A DNA stretch of 64,000 nt from positions 144,091 to 208,090 of the forward strand of contig CAYZNK010000001.1 of NCBI GenBank assembly GCA_964479955.1. The letters run 5' to 3'. Source of the stretch: an uncultured Candidatus Saccharibacteria bacterium. Its GTDB lineage: Bacteria; Patescibacteriota; Minisyncoccia; Minisyncoccales; Staskawiczbacteraceae. The notes under the pieces are model-generated. The model worked only from the letters and a program-made list of their open reading frames with translations, did no database searches and was not told the DNA's origin. This document shows, in pieces, positions 32,719 to 57,942 of this stretch (the stretch's first letter is position 1; each line of letters opens with the position of its first letter). The translations under genes were made by a program, and so were the position numbers.

Positions 32719-33135
32719 TCAAAATTGTTTTTTATATTCTTCTTTTTTTATATCAGCAGTTTTTACAACTGTCCAATAACTTTTGGATTTTTTATCTATT
32801 TTTATATTCAGGAGGTCTTTGCCTGATAATTTTAAAAATAAAGAAATGGGAGTTAATATTATAAAAAATAATATAATCAAAATCATGGATGATATTATTA
32901 TCCCAATAATGATTCCTATCGTCATCCATGTTTTTTGCAGGGGCTTTAACACAGATGGCAGAAACAAGGATAATAGTAAAACAGCAATAGATGCTAAAAA
33001 AAGCAACAGAGAATAATTATATTTTTTAAGAAAAATAAAATATACAGCAAAAATAACCATTAAGGATACTAAAACAAGAGAAAATTTTGATATCTCCTTT
33101 TTATCGCTTTTTATATTTTTTATACTATCTAACAT
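32719..33135 (-). CDS. SxtJ-family small membrane protein
   Basis: Two TM hairpins with the conserved LKPLQKTWM...LTPISLFLKLSGKDLLNIKIDKKSKSYW. Syntenic with the carbamoyltransferase. Confidence 0.7.
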   Translation of the reverse strand: MLDSIKNIKSDKKEISKFSLVLVSLMVIFAVYFIFLKKYNYSLLLFLASIAVLLLSLFLPSVLKPLQKTWMTIGIIIGIIISSMILIILFFIILTPISLFLKLSGKDLLNIKIDKKSKSYWTVVKTADIKKEEYKKQF

Positions 33136-33148
33136 TATTTTAATTTTT

Positions 33149-38411: not shown

Positions 38412-39258
38412 AAAACAAAATAATAAAATAATAGCTGTTACCGGAGCCGATGGGTTTTTAGGAAAAAAACTTTGTTTAAGGCTTGAAGAGCTTGGTTATG
38501 AAGTTTTAAGGCTTGACCTTGAAAATTTTGATGTAAAAAATAAAATAGAATTACCTCAAAACATAGACGTTATATATCACTTGGCCGCCATCAATAAGCC
38601 TTATTTATCAAAAGAAGCGCCCCTTGAAACCTTCAAAACAAATGTTTTGGGAACATTAAATCTATTGGAGGCTGTAAAAAATTACGGCGTTAAAAAAATA
38701 ATTTTTACTTCATCTGTATTCGTTTATAAGGACCTGCAAAAAACTAAAGAGAGCGATTTGGTAGAATATAACGGCATTTATCCTTATGGATTGGAAAAAT
38801 TGGTTTGTGAAGAATATATAAAGATATATTCTGGCTTGTGCGGATTTGATTATGCAATACTAAGAATTACTGGAGTCTATGGTCCCGGAATGTACAAAAA
38901 TCCTATTTATGACTTCATACAGGGATTTTTGAGGGGAGAGATTAACCTTTATGTAAATAAAAAATCCGTATATAATTTTGTTTATATTGATGACGTTGTT
39001 TCAGGGCTTATAAAAGCATTAAAATGGAAAAATCAAATTCTTAATTTATGTTCTGACAAAAGCGTAAAACTGACAGAAATTTATAATTTATTGTCTAAAA
39101 TGTTAAAAAATAAGTCCGAAGTTAGTGACACAAAAAATATTATTAAAATTAAAGGTAATAACAAAAAAATAAAAAAAATGGGCTGGAATCCAGCTTATTC
39201 TCTTGAAAAAGGATTAATTAAAACTTATAAATTTTTAAAAGATAATGAAAAAAAATAA
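38404..39258 (+). CDS. NAD-dependent epimerase/dehydratase (SDR)
   Basis: AVTGADGFLGKKL Rossmann motif and a YxxxK (YPYGLEKLVCEEY) catalytic motif. Confidence 0.8.
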   Translation: MIKKQNNKIIAVTGADGFLGKKLCLRLEELGYEVLRLDLENFDVKNKIELPQNIDVIYHLAAINKPYLSKEAPLETFKTNVLGTLNLLEAVKNYGVKKIIFTSSVFVYKDLQKTKESDLVEYNGIYPYGLEKLVCEEYIKIYSGLCGFDYAILRITGVYGPGMYKNPIYDFIQGFLRGEINLYVNKKSVYNFVYIDDVVSGLIKALKWKNQILNLCSDKSVKLTEIYNLLSKMLKNKSEVSDTKNIIKIKGNNKKIKKMGWNPAYSLEKGLIKTYKFLKDNEKK

Positions 39259-40360
39259 TTACGACAAAAAAGAATGGGCAAGCCCTTACAATGAGTTTAA
39301 TTCCATAAAAATTCTTTATTTCAAAGAGCACTTGGATGGGATAATAAAAGGCAAATTTTTGCCTCCTATCACTGTTGATACAGACCCTACCAATTTATGT
39401 AATTTTAATTGTATTTGGTGCAATGCCAAAGGATTCAGAAAAGAGTCGGCTTCCTCAATGCCCCGTGAGCATTTGCTTAAATTGGCAGATTTTTATAAAG
39501 AATGGGGGGTCAAATCAACCTGTGTGGCAGGCGGAGGAGAGCCAATGGCAAATCCGGGTTTTGCTGATTTTTTAAAAAGATTGCATAAAAACGGAATAAA
39601 AATAGGGGTAATATCAAATGGCAGTTTATTGGATCAAAAGAATGCAGAAGCTGTTGTAAAATATGCAAGTTGGTGCGGAATTTCAATGGATGCGGGAAGT
39701 AGCAGTGTTTTTATGAAAATAAAAGGTTTGAAAGACAAAACAATGTTTGATAAGGTTGTTGCCAATATAAAAAGAATGGTTGCTTTAAAAAGAAAGTTAA
39801 AATCAAACGTGGAAATTACTTACAAATACCTTTTGCATCCCTATAATGTTAAAGATATCTACAAGGCTGCAAAGCTTGCAAAATCCTTAGGAATGAATAC
39901 CTTTCATTTAAGGCCTGTTTGCTGGGATAATTTATATAATCAAGAGCATTCAGAGCCCATAAATTTTTCTGATTATACAGAGTTAATAGAGAAAGAAATA
40001 GAAAAGGCCAAGAAATTGGATGACAAGAATTTTAAGTTTTATAGCGTTAGGCATAAGTTTGGAGAAAATTTTGAAAGAAAAATTAATTTTAAAAAATGTT
40101 TGGCAACGCCATTATTGGCAACTTTTGGAGCGGATGGGAACGTTCATTTATGTTTCGACGTGAGGGGTAAAAAAGAGTGGGTGCTATGCAGTCATTATCC
40201 TGACCCGCGTAAAATTTTAAAAGTTTGGGGCAGTGCTCGTCATAAAAAAATTATAGACAGCATCAATGTTAAAAAATGCCCCAGGTGCACCTTTGGGCCG
40301 TATAACGAGATAATAGAAAAGGCGGTAATTGAAGACAAAATGTTTTTGGATTTTATTTAA
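39245..40360 (+). CDS. Radical SAM enzyme (Cys-rich C-terminal auxiliary-cluster region), putative sugar-modifying enzyme
   Basis: CNFNCIWC CX3CX2C motif and additional C-terminal cysteines (CLATPL, CFDVRG, CPRCTF). Confidence 0.85.
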   Translation: MKKNNYDKKEWASPYNEFNSIKILYFKEHLDGIIKGKFLPPITVDTDPTNLCNFNCIWCNAKGFRKESASSMPREHLLKLADFYKEWGVKSTCVAGGGEPMANPGFADFLKRLHKNGIKIGVISNGSLLDQKNAEAVVKYASWCGISMDAGSSSVFMKIKGLKDKTMFDKVVANIKRMVALKRKLKSNVEITYKYLLHPYNVKDIYKAAKLAKSLGMNTFHLRPVCWDNLYNQEHSEPINFSDYTELIEKEIEKAKKLDDKNFKFYSVRHKFGENFERKINFKKCLATPLLATFGADGNVHLCFDVRGKKEWVLCSHYPDPRKILKVWGSARHKKIIDSINVKKCPRCTFGPYNEIIEKAVIEDKMFLDFI

Positions 40361-43034: not shown

Positions 43035-43948
43035 AAAAAATTTTAATTACAGGGTCTTCGGGTACTATTGGCACGCGGCTTTTTGAAAAGCTTTTAGAGG
43101 GAGGATTTGAGGTTATTGGTTTTGATAAAAGAAAGAATAAATGGCATAAAAGAATAAATGATTTGACAATCATTGGAGATTTATTGAATAAAAAAGATAT
43201 AGAAAAATTAACGAAAGACTTTGATTTGATAATTCATTTGGCAGCTAACGCAAGGGTTTATAAACTTGTTTTAGAGCCTAAATTGGCCCTAGATAATATA
43301 ACAGCAACTTATAACATTTTAGATTTTGCAAGAAAAAATAATATAAAAAAAATTATTTTTTCAAGTTCAAGAGAAGTTTACGGCAATAGAAAAAAGATAA
43401 CTGCGACAGAGAAAGAGGTTGCTTTGCAAACATGCGAAAGTGCTTATTCAGCCAGTAAAATGTCCGGTGAAGCACTTTTATATTCCTTTTCTAAATGTTA
43501 CAGAATGGACTATATTGTTTGCAGGTTTTCCAATGTTTTTGGCATGTACGACGATAGTGAAAGATTTATGCCGTTGGTGATAAAGAGAATGAAGAACAAC
43601 GAAGATATAAAAATATACGATAAATCTAAAGTGCTGGATTTTACCTACATTGACGACTGTGTGGCGGGAATAATAAAGTGCGTTGATAAGTTTGACAAGG
43701 CAAAAAATAATACTTTTAACATAGCATCAGGTCGTGGAGAAAAAATTTTAGATGTTGCAAAAGGAATCAAGGATAAATTAAATAGCAGTAGCAAAATTAT
43801 TTTGAAAAAAAATCTTCAGGGAGAAATTATAAAATTTGTTGCCGATATATCAAAAGCAAAAAGGCTGCTCGGTTACAAGCCGGAAAATTTTATTGGAAAA
43901 AGCATTGATAAAACCATTGATTGGTATAAGAAAAATTTATGGATGTAA
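43019..43948 (+). CDS. NAD-dependent epimerase/dehydratase (SDR)
   Basis: ITGSSGTIGTRL Rossmann motif and a YSASKMSGE YxxxK motif. Confidence 0.8.
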   Translation: MDKKIKKILITGSSGTIGTRLFEKLLEGGFEVIGFDKRKNKWHKRINDLTIIGDLLNKKDIEKLTKDFDLIIHLAANARVYKLVLEPKLALDNITATYNILDFARKNNIKKIIFSSSREVYGNRKKITATEKEVALQTCESAYSASKMSGEALLYSFSKCYRMDYIVCRFSNVFGMYDDSERFMPLVIKRMKNNEDIKIYDKSKVLDFTYIDDCVAGIIKCVDKFDKAKNNTFNIASGRGEKILDVAKGIKDKLNSSSKIILKKNLQGEIIKFVADISKAKRLLGYKPENFIGKSIDKTIDWYKKNLWM

Positions 43949-44862
43949 TAATTGTTTGCCATACTGAATTTGGGTTTGTTAGCGGAAAAAAAATAGTTTT
44001 TGATAAAAAAGCCGCGCAAGGGGTCACATCCGGAGTTTTAAATTTAGTAAAAATTGCAGAAAAATACGGAGCCAAAGTATCTTTCGCTGTGATGCCAGAG
44101 GTTGCAAGCCATTTTCCTCAGAATATAAAGCATGAGATAGGCTTGCATATCCATCCGGGTTGGCAAGAATTTAAAGAAAAAGATTATTCTTTTTTTGTGG
44201 GAGACGCTTATTTTAAAAAAAACTGCAGGCAAGATTCTGATTCAACGGCTCTAAGAGACCACTCATATCAAAGCCAATTTGATATGATTAAAACAGGCAA
44301 AAGTTATCTGAAAGAAACCCTTAATTGCGAACCTAAATTTTTTGTGGCAGGCAGGTGGTCTTTAAATAACGACACCATAAAAGCCCTAATTGAGAATGGA
44401 TTTGTTCATGATTGTTCTGCGGTTCCAAATTCAAAGGCGGGCCATCATAACTGGTCAGAGCTGCCAAGAATTTGCATGCCTTATAATCCTGATAAAAATG
44501 ATTATCAAAAAGAGGGGAGTTTGCCCATTTTAATGGTTCCTGTTTCCCAGTTTTTTCCGGCAGGAAGTGTTAATGTGGAATCATTCCCTTATTACGGGCT
44601 TTCTTGGCTAAAAGCCTGTTTTTTAGAATATTATAAACAGGGCGCTCCTTTGTTCCATATTTGCCTTCATTCTCCTTCAATGACAGATGATTATTTTATT
44701 TCTGCATTGGACAGTCTTTTATATTTTATTTCAAAACATAAAGAAATAAATTTCAGATTTGTTTCTGAAATTAAAAAATATCCGGAAAAAAAATATAAGA
44801 CCAATCTTGTGCCCTATATTTTAAATATCAATTCTAAAATTATAAAAAGATTATTTTTTTAA
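43939..44862 (+). CDS. Hypothetical protein, possibly polysaccharide deacetylase-like (CE4-like His motifs)
   Basis: GLHIHPGW and CHTEFG motifs. Sits in a glycan-cluster context. Weak assignment. Confidence 0.35.
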   Translation: MDVIIVCHTEFGFVSGKKIVFDKKAAQGVTSGVLNLVKIAEKYGAKVSFAVMPEVASHFPQNIKHEIGLHIHPGWQEFKEKDYSFFVGDAYFKKNCRQDSDSTALRDHSYQSQFDMIKTGKSYLKETLNCEPKFFVAGRWSLNNDTIKALIENGFVHDCSAVPNSKAGHHNWSELPRICMPYNPDKNDYQKEGSLPILMVPVSQFFPAGSVNVESFPYYGLSWLKACFLEYYKQGAPLFHICLHSPSMTDDYFISALDSLLYFISKHKEINFRFVSEIKKYPEKKYKTNLVPYILNINSKIIKRLFF

Positions 44863-45762
44863 GATTGCTTTATAAACGCCCTTTTCATCTATTTTATGGT
44901 AGGATTTTAAAAATGATTTTGATCCGGAAATATTTTTAAATTTATCTGCCACACCAAGATTTTTTATAATTTTATTTTTAATCCCGTTTTTTACCAAAAT
45001 TTGGTTAACAATGCTTCCTAGCCCACCCATAATACTGTGTTCTTCTAAGGTAATTATTTTTTTGATATTTTTCAATTCTTTTATTAAAAATTTTTCATCA
45101 ACTGGTTTTAATGTATGCATATGTATTATTTTAAAATCAAGATTATCTCTTTCCGCCAAGTTTGAAACTCCAAGGGCAACTTCCAAACAAGTTCCTGTTG
45201 TTATTAAAGCAATTTTTTTTCCGTTTTTGTAAACAACGGGCTTTCCTATGGAAATTTTTTTAATTTTTTGATGTGTTGTATTGCCTGATTTATCCATCCT
45301 CATATAGGTTGATTTTTTGTTGGCATAAGATTTTAACATAAGTTTTTCTGTTTCTTCTGGATTTGCCGGAGATAATAACACTAAGTTTGGCAAAGCGTTT
45401 AATATTGAAATATCTTCTATTCCATAATGGGTAAAATCATGCGGACCATAGGAAAATCCGGCTCCCATCCCAATTATTTTTACATTTAGATTTGGATAGC
45501 AGATGTCGTTTCTTACCTGTTCAAAACACCTCATTGTTGCAAACGGAATAATAGAATAAACATAGGGTTTTTTCCCTTCCAATGCCAATCCGGAAGCAAT
45601 TCCCATCATTGTCTGTTCAATTAACCCGCAATTTATGAATCTGTCTGGGAATTTTTTTGCAAAATTTTCAAACACAGAAAATCCAAGGTCTCCGGTCAGA
45701 AGATAAATATTTTTATCTTTTTCTGCTAACTTTTCCAGTGTTTTTATAAAAGCCTTTCTCAT
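44851..45762 (-). CDS. Transketolase, C-terminal subunit (pyrimidine-binding plus C-terminal domains) of a split transketolase
   Basis: GIAEQHAV-equivalent region (INCGLIEQTMMGIASGLALEGKKP). About 300 aa, directly downstream of the N-terminal subunit. Confidence 0.9.
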   Translation of the reverse strand: MRKAFIKTLEKLAEKDKNIYLLTGDLGFSVFENFAKKFPDRFINCGLIEQTMMGIASGLALEGKKPYVYSIIPFATMRCFEQVRNDICYPNLNVKIIGMGAGFSYGPHDFTHYGIEDISILNALPNLVLLSPANPEETEKLMLKSYANKKSTYMRMDKSGNTTHQKIKKISIGKPVVYKNGKKIALITTGTCLEVALGVSNLAERDNLDFKIIHMHTLKPVDEKFLIKELKNIKKIITLEEHSIMGGLGSIVNQILVKNGIKNKIIKNLGVADKFKNISGSKSFLKSYHKIDEKGVYKAILKK

Positions 45763-45764
45763 TT

Positions 45765-46571
45765 TTAGTTTTCAAGATTTTTTAAAAATAATTCATATTC
45801 TTCTTTTCCTGGAGATTTATAATGAGACTCCAATTTTCCCTCCATTGTTTTTATGCCCTTACCCTTTATTGTATCGGCAATTATAACATTGGGTGCGTCT
45901 TTCTTAAAAGGAAGATCTTTTAAAGTTTTTTCTATTTCATAAAAATCGTGGCCATTAATTCCTTTTACCTGCCATCCAAACGAAATCCATTTTTCTTTTA
46001 ATGGCTCCAAATTTAGAACTTCATTGGTTTTTCCAAGAGCCTGCAGTTTGTTATAGTCAATAATAACGGTTAGGTTGTCTAATTTATGATGGCTGGCAAA
46101 TAAAGCCGATTCCCAGGTTGTTCCTTCATCGCATTCTCCGTCTGAAATTAAAACAAAAATGCGGTGTTTTTCTTTATCTTTCTTTGCGGCTAAAGACATT
46201 CCAATCGCAATGGGAAGGCCGTGTCCTAAAGCTCCTGTTGAAGCTTCAATCCCGGGAACGGTTCCTTTTGTGGCATGTCCAGGAAGTCTACTTTTATTTT
46301 GACAATAAGTTTTTAACAAGTCTTTTGAAAAAAAACCTTTTTCTGCCAGCACAGCATATAGGGCGCTTACAGCATGGCTTTTACTCATTATAAACCTGTC
46401 TCTGTTTTTATTGTTGGGATTTTTGGGTTCAATGTTCATTATCTTAAAATATAAAACAGCCAAAATGTCAGCGCACGACAAAGCAGACCCAATGTGCGAG
46501 TCTTGGGAAAGATAATGCATGTTTAATATACTTTTTTTTATTTCTTTTAAATAATTATTCATATAAGTCAA
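45765..46571 (-). CDS. Transketolase, N-terminal subunit (TPP-binding) of a split transketolase
   Basis: GHATKG...GALGHGLPIAIGMSLAAK...ISDGECDEGTTWE TPP-binding motifs. Confidence 0.9.
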   Translation of the reverse strand: MTYMNNYLKEIKKSILNMHYLSQDSHIGSALSCADILAVLYFKIMNIEPKNPNNKNRDRFIMSKSHAVSALYAVLAEKGFFSKDLLKTYCQNKSRLPGHATKGTVPGIEASTGALGHGLPIAIGMSLAAKKDKEKHRIFVLISDGECDEGTTWESALFASHHKLDNLTVIIDYNKLQALGKTNEVLNLEPLKEKWISFGWQVKGINGHDFYEIEKTLKDLPFKKDAPNVIIADTIKGKGIKTMEGKLESHYKSPGKEEYELFLKNLEN

Positions 46572-47508
46572 TATTTTTTTTGAACCATTCTATGTCTTTT
46601 TTTATTCCTTGTTCCAGGTTATATTTGGGCTCCCAATTTAAAAGTTTTTTGGTCTTTGAAATGTTTGCTACCCAGCTTTTTGGTTCTGTTTGGGAGATTT
46701 TCATTTTTCCATAGTTAGGCCTTACTGAACTCATGGCGATTTTTTTGGTTGTTTTAAATACTTGGTCTATTGTGCTTTGTTTGCCAGATCCTAAGTTAAA
46801 AATTTCACCCTTAACTTTTCTAATATTTTTGATTGTAGCCAAGTATCCGTCAATTAAATCTTCAATAAAAATAAAATCCCTTACAGATTTTGGGTTTGAA
46901 AGGTTTAACTCTGTATTTTTAAGACAAGATTTTATAATGTCTGTAAATAATCTTCCTTCTTCTTCAAAATATCCATAAACAGCAAATGGTCTTATAGTGA
47001 CAATGGGGAAGTTAAATTTTCTTGCCATCATTTGGCCGTATTGGGTGATAGCTGATTTTGTAATGCCATAAAGATTATCTGGCTCTAAAACATCGGTTTC
47101 TTTCATTGGCTTTGACTTTATGCCGTATTCGGAGCTTGAGCCTGTGTTGATAAAACACTTAACGCCAACCTTGTCGCAGGCGTTTATCAAATTTATTGAG
47201 CTTATTACATTTGTATCTATTGTGGCTTCTGTATCCTGTTGAAACCTTTGATATGCCCCGTAAGCTGCAAAATGTATTACAATATCGGGTTTGATTTTTG
47301 ATATTATTTTTTCAGTTTCATTATAGTCTGTTAAATCGGGGGAGTATAAATGTATTTTATTTTTTATTTTTTCAATGCGCCATAAATTTGCTTCTTTTCT
47401 TTCAAAAACAGAAACGTTGTGTCCTAATTCTAAGAATTTATAAATAAAATTAGCGCCGATAAACCCGGCACCACCAGTAATCAGAATTTTTTTATTATTT
47501 TCAACCAT
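46555..47508 (-). CDS. NAD-dependent epimerase/dehydratase (CDP-sugar epimerase/reductase-like SDR)
   Basis: ITGGAGFIGANF Rossmann motif and a YGITKSAITQY YxxxK motif. Confidence 0.8.
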   Translation of the reverse strand: MVENNKKILITGGAGFIGANFIYKFLELGHNVSVFERKEANLWRIEKIKNKIHLYSPDLTDYNETEKIISKIKPDIVIHFAAYGAYQRFQQDTEATIDTNVISSINLINACDKVGVKCFINTGSSSEYGIKSKPMKETDVLEPDNLYGITKSAITQYGQMMARKFNFPIVTIRPFAVYGYFEEEGRLFTDIIKSCLKNTELNLSNPKSVRDFIFIEDLIDGYLATIKNIRKVKGEIFNLGSGKQSTIDQVFKTTKKIAMSSVRPNYGKMKISQTEPKSWVANISKTKKLLNWEPKYNLEQGIKKDIEWFKKNIDLYE

Positions 47509-47522
47509 TTTTACCTATTTAA

Positions 47523-48494
47523 TTAGATTTTGGTTTTTATCCAGTCAAAGGTTTCTTTTATTCCATCTTCAAAGCTTGTCTTTGGCTCCCATTCAAGAAC
47601 TTCTCTTGCTTTTGTCCAGTCAAGATATTGCTCTGGTATTTCGTTTTTAGAAATATTAAGAACTTTATAATTTGTGTTTGTATTTAGGGCTTTGTCTATT
47701 TTATTTACTGTTTCTATAACATTAAAAATATTTTTGCTGCCAAAATTAAATGCCTGCCCCAAAACTTTTTCTTTATTTTCAATAAGTTTTATGCATCCTT
47801 GCACAATGTCTTTTACATAAGTATATTCTCTTATCATTTTCCCGTCGCTTCTTATGGGAAATTCTTTATTTTTAATAATTGCTTCCATTGTGCCTGGAAT
47901 TATTCTTGAAAGATTTAAATCTCCTGGTCCGTAAACATTACTGAATCTTGTTATTACAACAGGAAGTTTGTAGGTTGAAAAATATGTTTGGGCAATTAAG
48001 TCTGCTGAAGACTTTGAAGCGTCATAGGGGTGGTCTCCTTTAAGTGGGCAGGTTTCTTTATAGGGTAGTTTTTCGGCTTTTCCATAAGCTTTGTCAGAAG
48101 ATACAACAACAATTGTTTCCAGATTTCCTTGTAGTCTGCAAGCTTCTAAAATATTAACTGTTCCCATAACGTTTGTTTCTATTGCCTCGTAAGGATTTTC
48201 AAAAGCCTTATCAACAATTGGCTGAGCGGCAAAATGAAAAACGATATTTGGTTTTTCATTTTCAAAAATTTCAAAAATAGCTTTTTTGTCTCTTACGTCA
48301 GCTTCATAAAATTTGGTCAATGAATTTATATTTTCTTCTTTTCCAGATGACAAATTGTCTATCACAACAACAGCATGATTTTTTTTAACCAATTCATTAA
48401 CTAAATTAGACCCTATAAACCCAGCTCCGCCAGTTATGATTATTTTTTTAGAATTTAATTTTGCCATATTTTCCATTTTGGGTCTTTTTCCCAA
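47523..48494 (-). CDS. CDP-glucose 4,6-dehydratase-like SDR (RfbG/DdhB-like); true start is probably the internal Met (MAKLNS)
   Basis: ITGGAGFIGSNL Rossmann motif and YDASKSSADL YxxxK motif. Immediately downstream of glucose-1-phosphate cytidylyltransferase. Confidence 0.6.
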   Translation of the reverse strand: MGKRPKMENMAKLNSKKIIITGGAGFIGSNLVNELVKKNHAVVVIDNLSSGKEENINSLTKFYEADVRDKKAIFEIFENEKPNIVFHFAAQPIVDKAFENPYEAIETNVMGTVNILEACRLQGNLETIVVVSSDKAYGKAEKLPYKETCPLKGDHPYDASKSSADLIAQTYFSTYKLPVVITRFSNVYGPGDLNLSRIIPGTMEAIIKNKEFPIRSDGKMIREYTYVKDIVQGCIKLIENKEKVLGQAFNFGSKNIFNVIETVNKIDKALNTNTNYKVLNISKNEIPEQYLDWTKAREVLEWEPKTSFEDGIKETFDWIKTKI

Positions 48495-49261
48495 AGGTCG
48501 TTTAAAAATAAATAATCTTTATATGTATCCATTCCATACCAAAAACCATCGTGTTTGTATAAAGCGATCTGTTTTTCTGAAATTAATCTTGCCATAGCAT
48601 CTTCTATCATATCTCCGGGCTTTAGATAATTAAAAAATTCTTTGTTAAAAACCATAAATCCACCATTTACATAATCATACAACATTGGCTTTTGGGCAAA
48701 TTCTGTAATTAAATTTTCGCTATCAGAATTTACTAACCCCCATCTTGAAACAGGATGAACTCCTGTAACGGTTCCAATTTTTCCGTGTTTTTTATGGAAT
48801 TCAATTAATTTTTCTATATTAATATCGGAAATTCCATCTCCATAGGTTACCATAAACATATCTTCTGTGATATATTTTTTTAGCCTTAAAACCCTTTCTC
48901 CGTGAGGTGTTTCTAATCCTGTGTCAGAAAAAATAATATTAAAATCATCTACAGGGTCATCTGGAGTATTATTATCAAATGTAATAACTTTGCCGTCTTT
49001 TGTGTTTATAGAAATATCGTTATTGCAATGTTTTTGTTTAATAAAATGTTCTTTTATAGCAGAGCCCTTATATCCCAATGCTAAAATGAAATCACGATAA
49101 CCATAATGGTTATATATTTTCATGATATGCCACAAAATAGGAGCACCTCCAATTTCAACCATTGGCTTTGGTTTAAATTCTGTTTCTTCTTTAAGTCTTG
49201 TTCCTGTTCCACCGCAAAGTATTATTGTTTTTATTTTAGAATTAGGATTGTTTTGTTCCAT
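48455..49261 (-). CDS. rfbF: Glucose-1-phosphate cytidylyltransferase
   Basis: ILCGGTGTRLKEETEFKPKPMVEIGGAPILWHIMKIYNHYGYRDFILALGYKGSAIKEHF closely matches RfbF/DdhA. Confidence 0.85.
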   Translation of the reverse strand: MEQNNPNSKIKTIILCGGTGTRLKEETEFKPKPMVEIGGAPILWHIMKIYNHYGYRDFILALGYKGSAIKEHFIKQKHCNNDISINTKDGKVITFDNNTPDDPVDDFNIIFSDTGLETPHGERVLRLKKYITEDMFMVTYGDGISDINIEKLIEFHKKHGKIGTVTGVHPVSRWGLVNSDSENLITEFAQKPMLYDYVNGGFMVFNKEFFNYLKPGDMIEDAMARLISEKQIALYKHDGFWYGMDTYKDYLFLNDLWEKDPKWKIWQN

Positions 49262-49278
49262 ATTTATAGTTTAATAAT

Positions 49279-49998
49279 TTATTGGCTATTTTTTTTACCT
49301 ATTTTTTTTATTGACTTTGGTAAGTGTAAATCTCCTGCAAATATATAAAAATTTTTAGAAAAAAGTTTATATCTGTTTTCAAAGCGGTCTTTTAAAGAAT
49401 TTTTTTCCACTTTTGTTGCAAAGGTAATTGAATTTACGGTGTTAATATTTTTAAAATATTTTGATTTATAAACTAAATTTTTGACAACCTTTTTTGGGCC
49501 CGGAAATCCGTTACCAACACTGTCATGAAAAGCCATTATTCCTCCATTTATAACTTTAGGGAACCATAAATCAAAATCTAATTTTACAGACTCATATTTG
49601 TGGTCTCCGTCTATAAAAATAAATTCAACTGGTTCATTAAAATTTTTTACGGCTTGTTCAGATGTTTTTATAATGGGAAAAATAATATCATCTACATTTG
49701 CTGTTTTAATATTTTTTTTAAATTCTTCAAAGGTTGTTAAAGATTTTTGATTTTCAATAAGTCCTGCATTTTCGTTTAGAGAACCTGTATACGGGTCAAT
49801 AGCATAAATTTTTATTTTTTTTCCTTCTTTTGACCCTAATCCTATCCAAACTGTGGAGGTTCCTTTCCATGACCCTATTTCAACAATTACGCCTCTGTCT
49901 TGGCAATTTTTTGCCGTATTAAACAAAAACAGACCCTCGTCTTCGGCTAAAAAACCATCAATATTTTGAGCTATTTTTTTAATTTCTGTTATTAACAT
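49279..49998 (-). CDS. Class I SAM-dependent O-methyltransferase (Methyltransf_24 / CmcI-like)
   Basis: VEIGSWKGTSTVWI...FIDGDHKYESV. The ORF-track N-terminal extension to 50118 is AT-rich low-complexity, so the start is taken at MLITEIK. Confidence 0.7.
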   Translation of the reverse strand: MLITEIKKIAQNIDGFLAEDEGLFLFNTAKNCQDRGVIVEIGSWKGTSTVWIGLGSKEGKKIKIYAIDPYTGSLNENAGLIENQKSLTTFEEFKKNIKTANVDDIIFPIIKTSEQAVKNFNEPVEFIFIDGDHKYESVKLDFDLWFPKVINGGIMAFHDSVGNGFPGPKKVVKNLVYKSKYFKNINTVNSITFATKVEKNSLKDRFENRYKLFSKNFYIFAGDLHLPKSIKKIGKKNSQ

Positions 49999-50136
49999 AA
50001 AATTCTTTTGGGTTCTAAAACATCTTGATTCTAAGTATTTTAAGGAATATAATAAGCAAATAAATATTATATAAATATATAATAAATAAATAAGAATTAC
50101 AAGCTTATAATAGAACAAAATAGTGCTAAAAACTTT

Positions 50137-51129
50137 ATGAAAATTCCTAAAATTAGTGTAATGCTTTTAACTTATAATAGAGGGAAATTAGTCTCAAGGT
50201 CTATTAAAAGCGTTTTAAATCAAACTTTTAAAGATTTTGAATTGGTAATTGTTAATAATGCAGCAGAAGATAACACAGACCAAGTTATAAAGCCATTTTT
50301 AAGCGATTCAAGGGTTGTTTATAAAAAACTTGATAAAAACATAGGTCCTTTTGGCGGAATAAACACAATGTTAGATATGGTAAAGGGCAAATATATAATT
50401 AATATGGCAGATGATGATGAATTATTACCCGATGCCTTACAAATCATTTCAGATAATTTTGATAAATTTGAACCAAAAGGAATAAAAATATTGTGGTTTG
50501 ACTGCGTTGACGCAGAAGCTCAAAGGTATAGCGGAATTGGTATAAGAGAGGAGGGCCCAATAACCTATGAAGATTATTTATGTAATAGGTTTCAAGGTGA
50601 TTACCAAGTGATTATGTCAAGGGAAGTTATATGTAAAGAAAGGTTTGATCAAAACGCATGGGGAGGGATGACAACAGTGTTTAATTTAAGATGCCACAAA
50701 GGAAATAAAGCATATTATATACCAAAAGTTATTGAAAAAATGTATAGAGAACATGGAGAAAGCCGTATTACTGTTCCTGAAACCTCTTTGCTTAACCATA
50801 TACCCAAAATAGTTTGTACAATGAAAATGTTTATAGAAGAATTTGGCAAAGAAATTAAAAACTTATGCCCAAGATGCTATGGACCAAGACTGGCTTCTTT
50901 GGGGTTTTACCAAATTTTAAACGGAGAGAAAAAAGACGGCAGAAAAACTATTTTAGAATCTTTTAAGTATAGTTTTTCTTTATTTCACTTTTTTATTTTT
51001 TTATTTTCTTTTATTTTAAACAAAGATCAAATTAAATTTGTTTGCCTTAAATTTTTTTTGATAAGAAAAATAGTTGTTGACTTTTTAAAAAAATTTACAA
51101 AACCAGTAATTATTTCTAAGGCAAACTAA
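50137..51129 (+). CDS. Glycosyltransferase family 2
   Basis: ISVMLLTYNRGKLVSRSIKSVLNQTF...VNNAAEDNT. Confidence 0.85.
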   Translation: MKIPKISVMLLTYNRGKLVSRSIKSVLNQTFKDFELVIVNNAAEDNTDQVIKPFLSDSRVVYKKLDKNIGPFGGINTMLDMVKGKYIINMADDDELLPDALQIISDNFDKFEPKGIKILWFDCVDAEAQRYSGIGIREEGPITYEDYLCNRFQGDYQVIMSREVICKERFDQNAWGGMTTVFNLRCHKGNKAYYIPKVIEKMYREHGESRITVPETSLLNHIPKIVCTMKMFIEEFGKEIKNLCPRCYGPRLASLGFYQILNGEKKDGRKTILESFKYSFSLFHFFIFLFSFILNKDQIKFVCLKFFLIRKIVVDFLKKFTKPVIISKAN

Positions 51130-51145
51130 ATAAAAATGCAAAAAA

Positions 51146-52621
51146 ATGTCAGAAAATAAAATATTTATTAAAAGAATTGTAATAGTATTTGCCTCTAAAT
51201 TTATAACAAGCCTTAGAGGTTTAATTTTATTGCCTCTTTTAACTAAATTTATGGGGCCATCAAATTATGGCATCTGGTCTCAAATTCTAGTAACAATTGG
51301 TATTTTTTCACCTGTTATAATGTTAAATCTAACTGGATCTACTGTAAGGTTTTTATCAGCAGAAAAAGATAATAAAAAAATTTCTCAAGGTCTTTTTACG
51401 GTTTTCTTTACAACTTTTTTTGTTGGTATATTTTTTGCTTTAGCGTTGTTTTTATTTTCAGATTCTTTTGCAAATATTTTATTAAAAGAACCGTCGGCAT
51501 CTTTTTTTATTAAACTAACCTCTGTTCTTTTAATTTTAGAAGCATTAAATCAAACAGCATTAGAATCTTTTAGAGTTATAGGTCAAATTAAAAAATATTC
51601 CAAATTAACTATTTTCCAAAATATTTTTGAAGTAGGTCTTATAGCAATATTTATTTTTTCTGGTTTTGGTTTGTTTGGCGCAATAATAGCCCTATTAATA
51701 GGCAGAATTTTGATTATATTAATTTCTTTATATTCCATTATTTCTTCTGTAGGATTTAACGCGCCAAATTTTTCAGTTTTAAAAACATATTTAATATTTG
51801 GATTGCCATTTTTACCAATGGGAATTTTTGAAATGTTAATTAACTTAAGCGACAGGTATATAATAGGATTTTTTAAAGGAGCCCAAGCTGTTGGAATTTA
51901 TTCGGCCACACACAGTATAGGGCTTTTGGCTGGAGTTTTTGTTTTTCCAATTGCCTATATTTTATCTCCAACTGTTTTTAAATTTTTTGATGAAAATAAA
52001 ATAGATAAAGTAAAAAGTTATTTATCTTTTGCATTAAAATATTTTTTATTGTTTTCAATTCCATCTATTTTTGGGCTTTTTATTTTAGCAAAAACTATGT
52101 TAAGAACGCTTGCAACTCCAGAATTTGTTTTATTAAATAGTATGTTTATTGTATTGTGGGTTGCTATGGGGTCGGTTTTTTATGGAATTCAAGCAATTTA
52201 TAGCAACATAATAATGATAGAAAAGAAAACAAAATTTTTTATTTTTGCTTTTGCTATAGGTTTTTTTGTCAATATTGTTTTAAATATAATTTTTATTCCT
52301 ATTTTTGGCATAATGGCCGCAGCATTCAATGCGGCAATTAGTCATTTTATAGTTGCCTTTTTAATATATTTAAAATCAATCAAATATATTAAATTTAATT
52401 TTGATTTTTTATTTTTTATAAAAAGTATTTTTGCCTCTTTAATAATGTCGTTATCAATTTATTTTATAAATCCAATAGGGATAACAAAAACTATATTGGT
52501 GATTGTTTTGGGTGTTATTGTTTATTTTATAGTTTTGTTTTTGACAAAATCATTTTCTAAAGAAGAAATTAAAATTTTAATTTCTTCTGTTAAAAAAGAT
52601 AATTTTTCTAAAAAATATTAA
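51146..52621 (+). CDS. Oligosaccharide flippase (Wzx / MOP superfamily), second copy
   Basis: A polytopic protein of about 14 TM helices with the Wzx-like N-terminal motif. Confidence 0.75.
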   Translation: MSENKIFIKRIVIVFASKFITSLRGLILLPLLTKFMGPSNYGIWSQILVTIGIFSPVIMLNLTGSTVRFLSAEKDNKKISQGLFTVFFTTFFVGIFFALALFLFSDSFANILLKEPSASFFIKLTSVLLILEALNQTALESFRVIGQIKKYSKLTIFQNIFEVGLIAIFIFSGFGLFGAIIALLIGRILIILISLYSIISSVGFNAPNFSVLKTYLIFGLPFLPMGIFEMLINLSDRYIIGFFKGAQAVGIYSATHSIGLLAGVFVFPIAYILSPTVFKFFDENKIDKVKSYLSFALKYFLLFSIPSIFGLFILAKTMLRTLATPEFVLLNSMFIVLWVAMGSVFYGIQAIYSNIIMIEKKTKFFIFAFAIGFFVNIVLNIIFIPIFGIMAAAFNAAISHFIVAFLIYLKSIKYIKFNFDFLFFIKSIFASLIMSLSIYFINPIGITKTILVIVLGVIVYFIVLFLTKSFSKEEIKILISSVKKDNFSKKY

Positions 52622-53748
52622 TGGAAAATAAAATTTTATTAAGCATTGTTATACCAACTTACAATAGGGCTTTATATATAGCTAATCTTTTAAATTGTAT
52701 CACTTCACAAATTAAAGAATTTAAAGATTCTATTGAAATATGTATTTCAAATAATTGCTCTACTGACAACACAAGAGAGGTTATTATAAATTTTTCTAAA
52801 AAATATCCGGAGCTTATAAAGTATAACGAAAACGAAAAAAATTTGGGATTTAACAAAAATATGTTTAAGGTAATTCATATGCCAAAAGGTGAGTTTGTTT
52901 GGTTTTTTTGTGACGACGACACTATTGCAAATAATGGAATAAAAAAAGTTATAGATTTTTTAAAAAATAGCCAAAAAGAAAATACAGGATTTGTGAGTGT
53001 GGCAACAAGGTCATATTTTATTGATAAACAAACAGGCAAACAAATAACTTATTCCAAAAGTATAGAAGAGAATAAACCCAATATTTATGAGTTAGATTTA
53101 AAAGATATTATGGGACAAACAATTCCTACATCGGTTTTTACTCCGTCAATGATTTTTAATAATTATTATTTAAAAAAAATTCTTGAGGAAGAAAAAGAAT
53201 TATTAAATAAAGCGGTAGAAGCAGGAGAATATATACAAACCTTTTTATATCGTTTATTGTTTTTAAAATATCCAACTTTAAAAGCGTTGCGTTTTAATGA
53301 AGAGGTGATTAATGACGAGGCCCATCTTTATAAGTTTTACCTTGACGATATTTTTCAATTACACTATATTACTTGGACAAAGCTGTGCGACATTTTGATT
53401 AAAAATAAATACGCAAACGACTATTATAAAAAAATAATTGAGAAAGATAAAAAGAGAGCGATGAAGACTGTTATTATTGAAATGGGTTTAATGAGGTGTT
53501 TTGCTGCGTTTAATTATTCTTCTTTTTCTGGGTGTATCAAAATGTTTTTTAGAGAGGCGCCATTTTTCCGTGCGTTGTTATTTTCCATCTTTTTTATTAT
53601 TTTTAATATCATTCCTCCATTTATCCTAAGAAATTTATACAAAACCTATATCAAAATAAGACATAAAAAAAACTGGAAGAAAACATGGCTTTATATTACT
53701 GTTAAAAATTCAGAGATGGCCAAGGGTAGCCGCAGATTATATGATTAA
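52621..53748 (+). CDS. Glycosyltransferase family 2
   Basis: LSIVIPTYNRALYIANLL...SNNCSTDNT, and FCDDDT (DxD). Confidence 0.8.
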   Translation: MENKILLSIVIPTYNRALYIANLLNCITSQIKEFKDSIEICISNNCSTDNTREVIINFSKKYPELIKYNENEKNLGFNKNMFKVIHMPKGEFVWFFCDDDTIANNGIKKVIDFLKNSQKENTGFVSVATRSYFIDKQTGKQITYSKSIEENKPNIYELDLKDIMGQTIPTSVFTPSMIFNNYYLKKILEEEKELLNKAVEAGEYIQTFLYRLLFLKYPTLKALRFNEEVINDEAHLYKFYLDDIFQLHYITWTKLCDILIKNKYANDYYKKIIEKDKKRAMKTVIIEMGLMRCFAAFNYSSFSGCIKMFFREAPFFRALLFSIFFIIFNIIPPFILRNLYKTYIKIRHKKNWKKTWLYITVKNSEMAKGSRRLYD

Positions 53749-53762
53749 AAATATATGAATAT

Positions 53763-54482
53763 ATGATGGAAAAAAATGTATATGACGATATTGACCCTGA
53801 AGTTTACGAAAGCAGGCGGGGTCAGGATCAAAAGCAAGAATATTTATATGAACATTGGGAACCCTTTGTATCAGATTTAATTGTTAAATATTCAAAAGGA
53901 CATATTGTTTTAGACTTAGGGTGCGGAACCGGAAAGTATTCTTTTGAAATCGCAAAGCATGCTAAAAAAGTTTTTGCATTAGATTCTTCAGAAAGAATGT
54001 TGGATTATGCTAAGAAAAAGTATCCAGAGATGAAGTTTATATATGCTGATGCAACAAACACTCCGCTTGAGGATAATAGCATTGATGTTGTGTTTTCTTT
54101 TGGACTTCTGGAATATGTCAAAAATAAAGAAAAGTTAATTAAAGAAATATCAAGGCTGTTAAAACATGGAGGAACAGCTATAGTTTCATCAACAAATATA
54201 TATAGTATTCCCTGTTTTTTTATAGCGATATATTATAAGATTATTGGCAAGAAGAGAATGACTACAGAACCCTCTTTTGGCAAGATGAAAAAAATATTTA
54301 ATGCTCTTGGTTTTGAAATTATCGATTATAAAATGGATGATGGATTATTCTGGTTACCGTGTAAATTGGATAAACTCTTTGGTAAAAAAACATATTTATT
54401 TATAGAAAATTTTTTTAAGATTTTTAAACGGAATCCTTTTAGTACGGTAATGTTTTTTATCATTAAAAAATTAGATTACTAA
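53763..54482 (+). CDS. Class I SAM-dependent methyltransferase (Methyltransf_11-like)
   Basis: VLDLGCGTGKYSFEIA motif I and LKHGGTAIVS. Confidence 0.85.
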   Translation: MMEKNVYDDIDPEVYESRRGQDQKQEYLYEHWEPFVSDLIVKYSKGHIVLDLGCGTGKYSFEIAKHAKKVFALDSSERMLDYAKKKYPEMKFIYADATNTPLEDNSIDVVFSFGLLEYVKNKEKLIKEISRLLKHGGTAIVSSTNIYSIPCFFIAIYYKIIGKKRMTTEPSFGKMKKIFNALGFEIIDYKMDDGLFWLPCKLDKLFGKKTYLFIENFFKIFKRNPFSTVMFFIIKKLDY

Positions 54483-54520
54483 AATTAAAAAATAAATATT
54501 AATTATTATTTTAAAAAATT

Positions 54521-55168
54521 ATGTTAACAAAAAATTATTTTATTAAAATTTTAAAAAATATATATACTAAAATACCCGGCAAAGGGATGCCTCGCAGATA
54601 TAAATATCTATGTAAAACCGTAAAAGAAAATAAAGCCCGCAAGATTATGGAAATAGGCACTTGGACGGGCATACATGCTTTAGAAATGATAGAAGAGGCA
54701 AAAAAGAATTTTAAGCCGGAGGAAATTGAATACTATGGTTTTGATTTATTTGAGATGTTAGATGAAAATACTAGCACAAAGGAGTTTTCTATTCCACCAC
54801 CATCCTTTAAAGAAGTTGAGGAAAAATTAAAAAAAACAGGAGTGCATATAAACTTATACAAAGGTTATACTAAAGATACTCTTGCTGAACAGGTTGGTAA
54901 ATTACCTAAAATGGATTTTATTTACATAGACGGAGGACACAGTGTTGAAACCATTGAAAATGATTGGAGATATGCGGAAATGTTTATGGGTAAAAATACG
55001 GTAGTCATCTTTGATGATTATTGGAATAAAGACGATGCGGGTTGTAAAAAGATTATTGAGAGTATAGATAGTAATAAATTTGATGTAGAAATTTTGCCCG
55101 TACAAGATAAGTTTAAAAAAGATTGGGGAATTTTAACAATAAATTTTGCAAAGATTACTAGAAAATAA
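54521..55168 (+). CDS. Class I SAM-dependent O-methyltransferase-like (Methyltransf_24-like)
   Basis: IMEIGTWTGIHAL...YIDGGHSVETI. Confidence 0.7.
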   Translation: MLTKNYFIKILKNIYTKIPGKGMPRRYKYLCKTVKENKARKIMEIGTWTGIHALEMIEEAKKNFKPEEIEYYGFDLFEMLDENTSTKEFSIPPPSFKEVEEKLKKTGVHINLYKGYTKDTLAEQVGKLPKMDFIYIDGGHSVETIENDWRYAEMFMGKNTVVIFDDYWNKDDAGCKKIIESIDSNKFDVEILPVQDKFKKDWGILTINFAKITRK

Positions 55169-55182
55169 CAAACATAACATAA

Positions 55183-55899
55183 ATGAAATATAATAAATTT
55201 TTTAGGTTTTTAATTTTTTTTACAAGAAGGATAAAAGACAATCTGATAAGACTTTGGGTAATGCCTCAAAATAAGTTAAGAATTTTAAATTATTTAAAAA
55301 ATCATAATATAAAAAAATTGCACTTAGGAGCAGGTGGAAATATTTTAAAAGATTGGCTTAATACAGATATAAACCCTGATATTAAAACAGGGGCTTATCT
55401 TAATGTTGCAAAAAAATTTCCTTTTAAAAATAATACTTTTGACTATATATTTTCAGAACACCTTATTGAACACCTAGAAATTAGAAAAGGAATTTTTTCA
55501 TTAAAAGAATGTTTTCGCGTTTTAAAACCGGGTGGAAAAATAAGAATTTCTACTCCTAATCTTGGATTTTTAATAGAACTTTATAATCCACAAAAAAGCG
55601 AAATACAAACTCAAGAAATAAAAAGAATTGTAGATATGGTTTATGCTGATTTAAAAATATATCAAGATATTTTTGTGATAAATAATTTTTTTAGAAGCTG
55701 GGGGCATAAATTTATTTATGACTATAAACTACTTAAAGAGCTTGTAGAAAAAATAGGGTTTATAAATGTGGGTAGTTTTGAAGTTAAAAAATCTGATGAT
55801 GAAAACTTGCGGGGATTAGAAGCACATGGAAGATTTATTTCTGAAGAAATTAATAAACTACAAACATTTATTATTGAGGCACAAAAACCTAAAAATTAA
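55183..55899 (+). CDS. SAM-dependent methyltransferase (type 11-like)
   Basis: LHLGAGGNILKDWLNTDIN...VLKPGGKIRISTPN. Confidence 0.6.
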   Translation: MKYNKFFRFLIFFTRRIKDNLIRLWVMPQNKLRILNYLKNHNIKKLHLGAGGNILKDWLNTDINPDIKTGAYLNVAKKFPFKNNTFDYIFSEHLIEHLEIRKGIFSLKECFRVLKPGGKIRISTPNLGFLIELYNPQKSEIQTQEIKRIVDMVYADLKIYQDIFVINNFFRSWGHKFIYDYKLLKELVEKIGFINVGSFEVKKSDDENLRGLEAHGRFISEEINKLQTFIIEAQKPKN

Positions 55900-55901
55900 C
55901 C

Positions 55902-57011
55902 ATGAAAATAGCAATTGTGGCTTCAAGATTTCCACCACAAGGAGAGGTTGGTGGAATTGAAATAGCCAGTCAAAACATATCAAATCAATTATCAAAGATG
56001 GGAAACAATGTTTTTATTGTTGCTTTTGGCAAAGAAAAAAATATAGAAATTTTAGATAATAATTTAACTATATATAGACTGTCGTATCCTAAAATAAAAA
56101 TTTTAGGCAATTTAATTTTTTGGATTAAAATTTTTTTTGCGTTAAGAAAAATAAATCCAGACATTGTCCATTGTCAAACAATACAAATGGGCTTGCCGTG
56201 TTTTTTATTTAAAAAAATTTATAAAAAGCCATATATTGTTTGGTGTCATGGTTTTGATGTTTATTTTTTATGGAAATTTAAAAAAATTATTTCTAAAATT
56301 GTTTTAAATTCGGCAAATGCTGTTGTTGCGCTTACAGAAGATATGAAAAAAGAGATTAAAAAGAATTTTAAAAATGAAATTTTAGTATTGCCAAATGGAG
56401 TTGATTTAGAAAAATTTAAGGGGTTTTCAAAAGAAATTGTTCATGATAAGCTCAAAATACCAATTGAGGAAAAAGTAATTCTTTTTGTGGGGGAGCTTAA
56501 AAAAGTAAAGGGACTAGAGTATTTGATTGAAGCTTTTAAAAAAATAAATCAAAGATTTGTAAATTCTAAATTATTATTAGTAGGAGGCGGGTTAGAAAAA
56601 GAAAACTTAGAGAATATTGTTAAAAAAAACAATTTGCAAAACAAGATTATTTTTGTGGGCAGAATTGCAAATCAAGAAGTTTGTGAATATATGATAGGAT
56701 CTGATGTATTTGTTTTACCAAGCTTATCAGAAGGTTTTCCATTAGTTATTTTAGAGGCAATGGCATCTGGTCTTCCTATTGTTGCAACAAAAGTAAGAGG
56801 TTTGTCTGAAATATTAAAAGATAATAAGAATGGGTTTTTAGTTGACCCAAAAAATTCAGAAGATCTTTTTCAAAGAATTTTGATTCTTTTAGAAAACGAC
56901 CAGTTAAGAAAAGAAATATCTAATTTAAATAAAAATCAGGCAAAAGAATATAGTTGGGAAAAAATTACAAAAGAAATTGAAAAAATATATTTAAAAGCAA
57001 TATCTAAATAA
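55902..57011 (+). CDS. Glycosyltransferase family 4
   Basis: GT4 GT-B fold with C-terminal FVLPSLSEGFPLVILEAMASGLPIVAT. Confidence 0.9.
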   Translation: MKIAIVASRFPPQGEVGGIEIASQNISNQLSKMGNNVFIVAFGKEKNIEILDNNLTIYRLSYPKIKILGNLIFWIKIFFALRKINPDIVHCQTIQMGLPCFLFKKIYKKPYIVWCHGFDVYFLWKFKKIISKIVLNSANAVVALTEDMKKEIKKNFKNEILVLPNGVDLEKFKGFSKEIVHDKLKIPIEEKVILFVGELKKVKGLEYLIEAFKKINQRFVNSKLLLVGGGLEKENLENIVKKNNLQNKIIFVGRIANQEVCEYMIGSDVFVLPSLSEGFPLVILEAMASGLPIVATKVRGLSEILKDNKNGFLVDPKNSEDLFQRILILLENDQLRKEISNLNKNQAKEYSWEKITKEIEKIYLKAISK

Positions 57012-57012
57012 T

Positions 57013-57924: not shown

Positions 57925-57942
57925 ATTAAACAAAATAAAAAT

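Follow-up and report, generated by a model that had tools for sequence, protein, structure and literature searches.

Six minus-strand open reading frames (ORFs) lie within 44851-50118 of a 64,000-nucleotide stretch of contig CAYZNK010000001.1 (forward-strand positions 144,091 to 208,090), which we call the window and whose first letter is position 1. Their intergenic spacing ranges from -17 to +17 nt, and the arrangement is therefore of the operon type. The first gene encodes an S-adenosylmethionine (SAM)-dependent methyltransferase of the Methyltransf_24 family (49279..49998; PF13578, 88 bits) and is followed by that of an RfbF-like sugar-1-phosphate cytidylyltransferase (48455..49261; NTP_transferase, 73 bits). 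Next come two genes for short-chain dehydrogenases/reductases (SDRs): SDR1, a probable nucleoside diphosphate (NDP)-hexose 4,6-dehydratase of the Asp-Lys type (47523..48476; Epimerase/GDP_Man_Dehyd, 199/211 bits), and SDR2, an extended SDR that may serve as ketoreductase of the product discussed below or in other sugar tailoring (46555..47508; Epimerase/GDP_Man_Dehyd, 172/154 bits). The last two genes encode a transketolase (TK)-like enzyme in two pieces, an N subunit (TK-N) with the diphosphate-binding domain for thiamine diphosphate (ThDP) (45765..46562; PF00456, Transketolase_N, 148 bits) and a C subunit (TK-C) with the pyrimidine-binding and C-terminal domains (44851..45762; PF02779, Transket_pyr, 102 bits; PF02780, Transketolase_C, 62 bits). 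An earlier reading made from the sequence alone had proposed a six-gene operon with this gene order, which the ORFs, the Pfam and NCBIfam matches and the tight spacing all bear out. On the best explanation, the operon supplies a surface glycan with a modified 6-deoxyhexose in nucleotide-activated form, and the TK-like enzyme is very probably dedicated to that glycan pathway. The top homologues carry the annotation Candidatus Staskawiczbacteria or Parcubacteria, and the host is therefore a bacterium of the candidate phyla radiation (CPR)/Patescibacteria.

All three Transketolase domains are present, spread over two genes as in the split TK of Carboxydothermus hydrogenoformans (ChTK), whose subunits are also the best solved matches (6YAK for TK-N at 241 bits and 6YAJ for TK-C at 178 bits). 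Equivalents of the catalytic and donor-binding histidines H26, H66, H100, H261 and H473 of Escherichia coli TK (EcTK) all occur in the pair. The signatures of TK-N nevertheless differ from those of canonical TKs, with SHIGS in place of GHPGGS, GALGHG in place of GSLGQG, SDGECDEG in place of GDGEIQEG and SHY in place of WHG; its ThDP/metal motif thus reads SDG...N rather than GDG...N. In TK-C, the motif GMGAGFSYGPHDFTHYG stands where canonical TKs read ATHAGLTVGEDGASHQ, and MDKSG stands where they read LGRSG.

The acceptor specificity of TK depends on positions R358, S385, D469 and R520, and the positions that address the donor are H66, H100, G114 and H473 (PMC7661550). In the window TK-C, by EcTK numbering, D469 is replaced by His and R520 by Lys; R358, the cofactor-activating Glu and H473 are kept. 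A further replacement, by Gly, affects H461, a phosphate-binding position. Across the acceptor and phosphate pocket (R358, S385, H461, D469 and R520), R358 alone is retained, and the canonical TK pattern is lost. The loop behind the DADL/TGDL motif (after S385) is also one residue shorter than in canonical enzymes. Judged from these residues, the Gly at H461, the Lys at R520 and the loss of a loop residue would plausibly open the substrate funnel further to accommodate a nucleotide-sugar, with basic residues kept for its diphosphate.

This rebuilt pocket is not peculiar to the window. The TK-C sequence was searched against 1.84 billion representative proteins, and pocket residues were tallied over the top 150 clusters, all of which outscore canonical ChTK-C. 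The cofactor Glu (149 of 150), the H473 equivalent (150 of 150) and R358 (137 of 150) are kept. By comparison, H461 has become Gly in 143 of the representatives, D469 stays Asp in just four of them (with Leu the commonest residue at that position), and the R520 position holds Lys in 91 and Arg in 38. A motif table shows that the equivalent of EcTK His100 is conserved throughout the subfamily. In simple neighbour-joining trees, whose few canonical references were human TK, ChTK and Clostridial TKs, the split between canonical TKs and the subfamily was recovered in 285 of 300 bootstraps for TK-N and, with the long-branch sequence P0253 pruned, in 256 of 300 for TK-C. By motif and by tree, then, the pair is a member of a large, widespread TK subfamily that stands apart from the pentose-phosphate transketolases, although its proteins bear the database names 'transketolase' or 'transketolase family protein'.

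Two other loci encountered during these comparisons carry unusual TK genes. A Firmicutes metagenome-assembled genome (L040:11075-12800) has, 7 kb away from a canonical split TK, an additional divergent TK-N/TK-C pair with the pocket variant LGVNSGLLGGEREGVTHQ, which may represent a further case of neofunctionalisation, such as a sulfosugar or catabolic split TK. In Clostridium sp. UMGS1864 (L041:9962-10787), TK-N is divided between two ORFs (133 and 146 aa), as would result from a frameshift, an assembly error or decay to a pseudogene. For the window pair itself, a split TK of the sulfoquinovose type (6-deoxy-6-sulfofructose transketolase, PMC11659671) was rejected by context alone, given that catabolic genes are lacking, and a phosphonate decarboxylase of the AepY type was rejected by the TK-type Pfam domains.

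The genomic surroundings of the subfamily are similarly distinctive. A scan restricted to one genome per species yielded 39 loci that span Patescibacteria, Elusimicrobia, Gamma- and Betaproteobacteria, Gemmatimonadota, Actinomycetota (many of them Planktophila/Nanopelagicales), Verrucomicrobia, Planctomycetes and Bacillota. BLAST searches with the window proteins place an RfbF-like gene and a 4,6-dehydratase of the Asp-Lys type within 10 kb of the TK genes in most subfamily loci, and this linkage occurs in none of the four loci whose TKs have canonical or otherwise divergent motifs. Within the CPR, TK-N and TK-C reside in glycan clusters on eight contigs, mostly as SDR2-TKN-TKC, and this order is kept in loci L001, L003, L005 and L046 and in the contig of P0050. 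One CPR variant combines the TK with a PglF-like UDP-HexNAc 4,6-dehydratase and a DegT aminotransferase. Because the CDP-type and the PglF-type cassettes both hold a 4,6-dehydratase, an NDP-4-keto-6-deoxyhexose is their common denominator. Our literature searches did not find a description of an RfbF/RfbG/TK cassette.

Several of these genes are fused in relatives. The nucleotidyltransferase is joined to SDR1 in L005 (578 aa) and in the P0050 contig (547 aa). A plasmid of Paenibacillus cellulosilyticus (NZ_CP054609.1) has the gene order rfbF-rfbG-MT-SDR::TKN-TKC-OMT-GT, where MT and OMT denote methyltransferases and GT a glycosyltransferase, and encodes a 635-aa SDR::TK-N fusion (L045:7097-9004) that is annotated only as 'SDR family oxidoreductase'. 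In P0153 (658 aa), TK-C carries a zinc-type medium-chain alcohol dehydrogenase as a C-terminal fusion. A different kind of variation was seen in the CPR relative L046, where a 287-aa HNH/NUMOD3 endonuclease ORF (7794-8657) separates TK-N from TK-C and looks like a mobile insertion of the homing-endonuclease type within the cassette.

The distribution of the subfamily bears directly on the simplest alternative, namely that the window pair serves the non-oxidative pentose-phosphate pathway as the split housekeeping transketolase of the organism and resides in a glycan cluster by chance. The match to ChTK, a genuine split TK, would agree with such a role, as would the complete set of ThDP-binding and catalytic histidines and the fact that a second TK gene was not found in the 64-kb window; moreover, small genomes are typical of the CPR, and a split TK can have a housekeeping role (PMC7661550). 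However, the trees set the pair apart from canonical TKs, H461, D469 and R520 are replaced and the loop is shortened, and the TK genes are translationally coupled to those of the sugar-nucleotide SDRs (SDR2 with TK-N). In addition, the eight CPR contigs and about 30 loci from other phyla always present a glycan context and never place these genes beside recognisable central-pathway genes. Several carriers also come from groups in which a full-length tkt is the rule, such as Paenibacillus, Gammaproteobacteria and Actinomycetota. We therefore regard a housekeeping role as very improbable. The sequence-only reading, which held the subunits to be dedicated to a glycan and proposed a phylogeny as its check, agrees on this point with the trees, the remodelled acceptor pocket and the conserved linkage to 4,6-dehydratases, since the subunits do not cluster with canonical TKs.

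The same linkage informs the identity of the acceptor. Because the subfamily is conserved beside NDP-hexose 4,6-dehydratases in at least eight phyla, usually in the company of RfbF and RfbG and often of RfbH, an NDP-4-keto-6-deoxyhexose is the most plausible acceptor, and the suggestion made from the sequence that a 4-keto-6-deoxyhexose would be suitable thereby gains support.

The enzymes predicted to supply this acceptor can be placed at the family level. Against TIGR02623 (glucose-1-phosphate cytidylyltransferase), the nucleotidyltransferase scores 247.5 bits over the entire profile (1-255/255) but misses the equivalog cut-off of 300.25, and it is about 40% identical by BLAST to RfbF-type genes of other phyla. 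It thus resembles RfbF at the family level, with strict RfbF membership left below the cut-off. SDR1 scores 211 bits against the NCBIfam model for dTDP-glucose 4,6-dehydratase and 197 bits against TIGR02622 for CDP-glucose 4,6-dehydratase (cut-off 278), both values being below the cut-off. It carries SSDKAYG, which includes an Asp-Lys dyad, and YDASK, which corresponds to YxxxK. The dyad is a catalytic feature of CDP-glucose 4,6-dehydratases, as in the Salmonella and Yersinia structures. The SSDKAY sequence is common to CPR orthologues, and bona fide RfbG proteins in related loci read TTDK[VC]Y with the same dyad. The earlier labels 'RfbF-like' and 'CDP-glucose 4,6-dehydratase-like' are thus upheld as family assignments, whereas equivalog status is reached by neither protein. 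Relatives of the locus do hold a bona fide CDP-glucose 4,6-dehydratase, at 392 bits and above the cut-off. For SDR2, the best NCBIfam match is GalE at 146 bits, below the cut-off, which amounts to a generic GalE likeness.

One gene expected from related cassettes is missing. The closest relatives of the window are L001, whose TK-N is 89% identical, and L005, and in both of them rfbH lies between TK-C and a convergent gene (L001, 11714-13030; L005, 9709-11016). Bona fide RfbH/E1 proteins of the relatives reach 738 and 733 bits and carry the CxCx7C iron-sulfur motif; the L001 protein scores 738 bits against NF011936, the L005 copy is 74% identical, and the motif is present in both. By tblastn, RfbH was not found anywhere in the 64-kb window. 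Here the convergent gene (43939..44862, plus strand), a conserved neighbour of the cassette, overlaps TK-C by 12 nt (44851-44862), which makes for a clean absence of rfbH. Its 307-aa product is without a Pfam or NCBIfam match and has orthologues that are 82% (L001) and 69% (L005) identical in the same convergent position. A NUDIX gene found between SDR1 and SDR2 in L001 and L005 is likewise absent from the window. The layout without RfbH recurs in the P0050 contig and in Planktophila loci, and the function of the TK is therefore independent of RfbH. These same loci rule out the notion that the TK stands in for the missing E3 reductase of RfbH. Since the window is without RfbH, the acceptor would keep its 3-hydroxyl and would thus be a 6-deoxy rather than a 3,6-dideoxy sugar.

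From these components we infer a pathway, including its acceptor, donor, position of attack and order of steps. The RfbF-like enzyme would activate a hexose-1-phosphate, probably to a CDP-sugar, and SDR1 would turn the activated sugar into an NDP-4-keto-6-deoxyhexose. TK-N and TK-C, presumably assembled as an alpha2beta2 enzyme and a neofunctionalised branch of the TK superfamily, would then take up a two-carbon ketol unit on ThDP (as dihydroxyethyl-ThDP) from hydroxypyruvate or a ketose and add it at the C4 ketone, creating a tertiary alcohol with a 4-C-glycolyl branch. SDR2 would subsequently reduce the ketone of the branch (or of the ring), the methyltransferase would methylate the product, and the neighbouring glycosyltransferases and flippases would make use of the finished sugar. 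The activation and dehydration steps are predicted from family-level homology and from the fusions, whereas the ketol transfer, the reduction by SDR2 and the methylation are suggested by the remodelled acceptor pocket, by the linkage conserved among the loci and by the analogy with YerE/YerF. A specific ketol transfer to C4 by the TK-like enzyme is the outcome that we modestly favour. That a glycolaldehyde unit in particular is placed onto C4 to give a 4-C-glycolyl or 4-C-(1,2-dihydroxyethyl) sugar, which would make this the first ketone-accepting enzyme of the TK superfamily in surface-glycan synthesis, is a more tentative proposal and one that we hold with less than even confidence. A 4-C-glycolyl branch occurs in the antibiotic sugar pillarose, and neither a 4-C-glycolyl nor a 4-C-(1,2-dihydroxyethyl) sugar is known to us from bacterial polysaccharides.

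Various observations weigh against this pathway and must be set beside it. We know of no characterised member of the TK subfamily, nor of a glycan structure from an organism that carries the cassette. The TK-C subfamily came out as strictly monophyletic in just 57 of 200 bootstraps before pruning, owing to the long-branch representative P0253, which bears the subfamily motif despite its branch length. Because the nucleotidyltransferase and SDR1 fall below their NCBIfam equivalog cut-offs, the nucleotide and the dehydratase activity are predictions only, and the best solved-structure match of SDR1 is an annotated UDP-glucose 4-epimerase (4zrm), with dTDP-glucose 4,6-dehydratases also matched. 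Neither RfbF nor a dehydratase was found within the fetched flank of L003, L006, L010-L012, L022 or L028. TK-C scores slightly higher against the NCBIfam model for 1-deoxy-D-xylulose-5-phosphate synthase (DXS; 166 bits) than against that for TK (152 bits), and the SH(I/V/L)GS motif of TK-N is DXS-like; these two features leave room for pyruvate as the donor. Finally, there is neither a structure nor in vitro proof for a ketone-accepting TK (PMC12247030).

The DXS-like features suggest a different chemistry, in which pyruvate is decarboxylated, an acetyl equivalent is added to the C4 ketone and reduction by SDR2 yields a 4-C-(1-hydroxyethyl) branch. The product would be a yersiniose-type sugar in the relatives that possess RfbH and its 3-hydroxy analogue here. 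E. coli DXS is indeed the second-best solved match for TK-C, and the TK-N motif resembles the GHLGSS of DXS. The loss of D469, which reads the 2-hydroxyl of the acceptor, is shared with enzymes of non-canonical specificity, and the RfbF-RfbG-RfbH context of the relatives is the exact precursor pathway of yersiniose. However, TK-N speaks for the TK lineage, with 254 bits to NCBIfam TK models versus 27 bits to DXS, and the characterised split enzyme ChTK does not take pyruvate. A further argument comes from the equivalent of EcTK H100, which is Phe in all DXS enzymes and whose replacement by Phe or Leu makes TK use pyruvate (PMC7661550). Because the histidine is conserved subfamily-wide and in the window, we favour a hydroxylated ketol donor, either hydroxypyruvate or a ketose, over pyruvate and consider the addition of an acetyl equivalent unlikely.

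A further alternative keeps the enzyme in the glycan pathway but moves the chemistry away from C4. An aldehyde, such as a C6-aldehyde or an open-chain intermediate, might be extended to a higher sugar of the octulose type, the enzyme might produce a small ketol or amino-alcohol substituent for subsequent attachment to the sugar, or it might act jointly with the DegT aminotransferases encoded after TK-C in many relatives. Every characterised TK accepts aldehydes, not ketones (PMC7661550, PMC12247030), the gene immediately after TK-C in L001, L003, L005, L046 and L047 is of the DegT/RfbH family, and the flanks listed above in which neither RfbF nor a dehydratase was identified would fit a route of this kind. 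By contrast, an aminotransferase is absent beside the TK genes in the window and in the P0050 contig, the sole partner common to the cassette variants is a 4,6-dehydratase (of the CDP type or the PglF type), and 4,6-dehydration removes the very C6 hydroxyl that a C6-aldehyde route needs. We judge modification elsewhere than at C4 to be improbable, and retain ketol transfer to the C4 ketone of an NDP-4-keto-6-deoxyhexose as the preferred reaction.

The starts of several operon genes required adjustment. The mechanical ORF of the methyltransferase runs to a TTG at 50118, with an internal ATG at 49998. The orthologue in L005 is 71% identical and occupies the equivalent position, and because homology with it begins at ORF residue 43, the start is placed at the ATG, in agreement with the gene end at 49998 given by the sequence-only reading. 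For SDR1, the mechanical start is a TTG at 48494, and alignment with homologues moves it to about 48476. TK-N most likely starts at 46562 (M4), judging from the 265-aa orthologue P0001. Upstream, a glycosyltransferase gene at 50137 diverges from the operon. A scan of 44.5-50.4 kb for promoters and terminators gave counts similar to those of shuffled sequences (32 promoters versus 27.7±6.4; five terminators versus 3.6±1.8).

The operon resides inside a glycan super-cluster of about 34 kb that extends from about 30.2 kb to the end of the window. This cluster also encodes a Wzy_C protein, a carbamoyltransferase, a GDSL protein, two flippases, a radical-SAM enzyme, several GT2/GT4 glycosyltransferases, four more methyltransferases, RmlC and RmlD. 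Genes for the housekeeping proteins FtsA, FtsZ, NrdD/G, ComEC, HtrA and ClpB occupy the left half of the window. The G+C content is about 30%, and falls to 26-28% at 50001-58000 versus 34-43% in the housekeeping half, which is compatible with horizontally exchanged glycan genes. At 30275-36369 (minus strand), genes for the Wzy_C protein (752 aa), a small SxtJ-like protein, a NodU/CmcH-type carbamoyltransferase (603 aa) and the GDSL-family protein are grouped, which suggests that the same glycan or a neighbouring one is O-carbamoylated or acylated. The radical-SAM gene (39245-40360) sits among glycosyltransferase genes and is 88% conserved in L001 (16621-17736); a radical-SAM gene is also found near the TK genes in L047 and L041. 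A 276-aa ORF at 57943-58773 matches part of the N-terminal and the central domain of UDP-glucose/GDP-mannose dehydrogenases without the C-terminal domain, and may be truncated or degenerate.

If the proposed ketol transfer is correct, the enzyme would represent a new type of TK reaction, with a ketone as the acceptor, and would be of biocatalytic interest for the production of tertiary alcohols. It would also imply an overlooked class of branched sugars on environmental cell surfaces, including those of CPR and abundant freshwater bacteria, since subfamily carriers comprise CPR bacteria, the abundant freshwater acI Actinobacteria (Planktophila/Nanopelagicales), Methylopumilus, Paenibacillus and others. 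The generic annotation 'transketolase', which at present inflates pentose-phosphate-pathway calls in reconstructions of reduced genomes, would be corrected as well. Members can be recognised by a signature in which Gly replaces EcTK H461, D469 is lost and R520 becomes Lys, together with the sequence SDGECDEG. This signature, the linkage to dehydratases and the existence of a cultured carrier (the Paenibacillus cellulosilyticus plasmid) make the question directly testable.

To our knowledge, YerE-like and PDH-E1-like enzymes are the only ones for which C-branching of nucleotide sugars with ThDP is established. The PDH-E1-like branching enzymes of antibiotic sugars (the alpha-KADH2 class, for example KbDH-alpha/beta) parallel the window pair in being two-subunit ThDP enzymes that place an acyl branch on a keto-sugar (PMC12247030). 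They belong to the E1_dh superfamily and use pyruvate, whereas the Pfam match of the window TK-N to E1_dh amounts to just 20 bits. DXS is itself a member of the TK superfamily with an N-terminal His motif similar to the SHxGS of TK-N, and the window TK-C scores similarly against the DXS and TK models. DXS differs in being a single chain that uses pyruvate as its donor and in having Phe at the H100 position (PMC7661550), and the window TK-N reaches just 27 bits against DXS. ChTK (6YAK/6YAJ) has the same division of domains, with the diphosphate-binding domain on one chain and the pyrimidine-binding and C-terminal domains on the other, as well as the same ThDP/metal ligands and catalytic histidines, and an alpha2beta2 assembly is presumed for the window pair in common with it. 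It differs in reading ATH..GEDG..HQ and GRSG where the window reads GMG..GPHD..HY and DKSG, and ChTK is an aldehyde-accepting TK, whereas the window enzyme has the shorter DADL/TGDL loop, SDG for GDG and a glycan context.

The sole precedent of the TK type is the split-gene TK of the miharamycin and amipurimycin pathways of Streptomyces, whose reaction is a proposal that has never been reconstituted in vitro (PMC12247030). Like the window enzyme, it is paired with an oxidoreductase, and its proposed reaction places a hydroxyacetyl unit on a keto sugar, giving a tertiary alcohol (PMC12247030). It serves secondary metabolism and a high-carbon sugar of a nucleoside rather than a CDP-hexose of a surface glycan, and this comparison is by description only.

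A close functional parallel is the YerE/YerF system that makes yersiniose A in Yersinia pseudotuberculosis. As proposed for the window, a C2 unit is joined with the help of ThDP to C4 of a CDP-4-keto-(3,)6-deoxyhexose, at the ketone, and ketoreduction follows; the upstream RfbF, RfbG and RfbH are also found in relatives of the window locus, and the product goes to a surface glycan. YerE, which acts on CDP-4-keto-3,6-dideoxyglucose and has the YerE-like counterparts ErwE, JanthE and MMAR_2332, is a single-chain enzyme of the acetohydroxyacid synthase (AHAS)/decarboxylase superfamily with pyruvate as its donor (PMC12247030). The sequence-only reading had cited yersiniose as a case of sugar branching by split TKs, and this precedent is wrong because YerE belongs to the decarboxylase superfamily. 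An AHAS-like gene is not among the annotated ORFs of 30-64 kb, and the window subunits match TK-type Pfam domains only. The window system is thus a two-subunit member of the TK superfamily that keeps the histidine associated with a hydroxylated donor, and, without RfbH, its acceptor would retain the 3-hydroxyl group. By analogy with YerE/YerF, the most fitting class for the locus is sugar branching with ThDP, in a variant that would employ a different ThDP superfamily.

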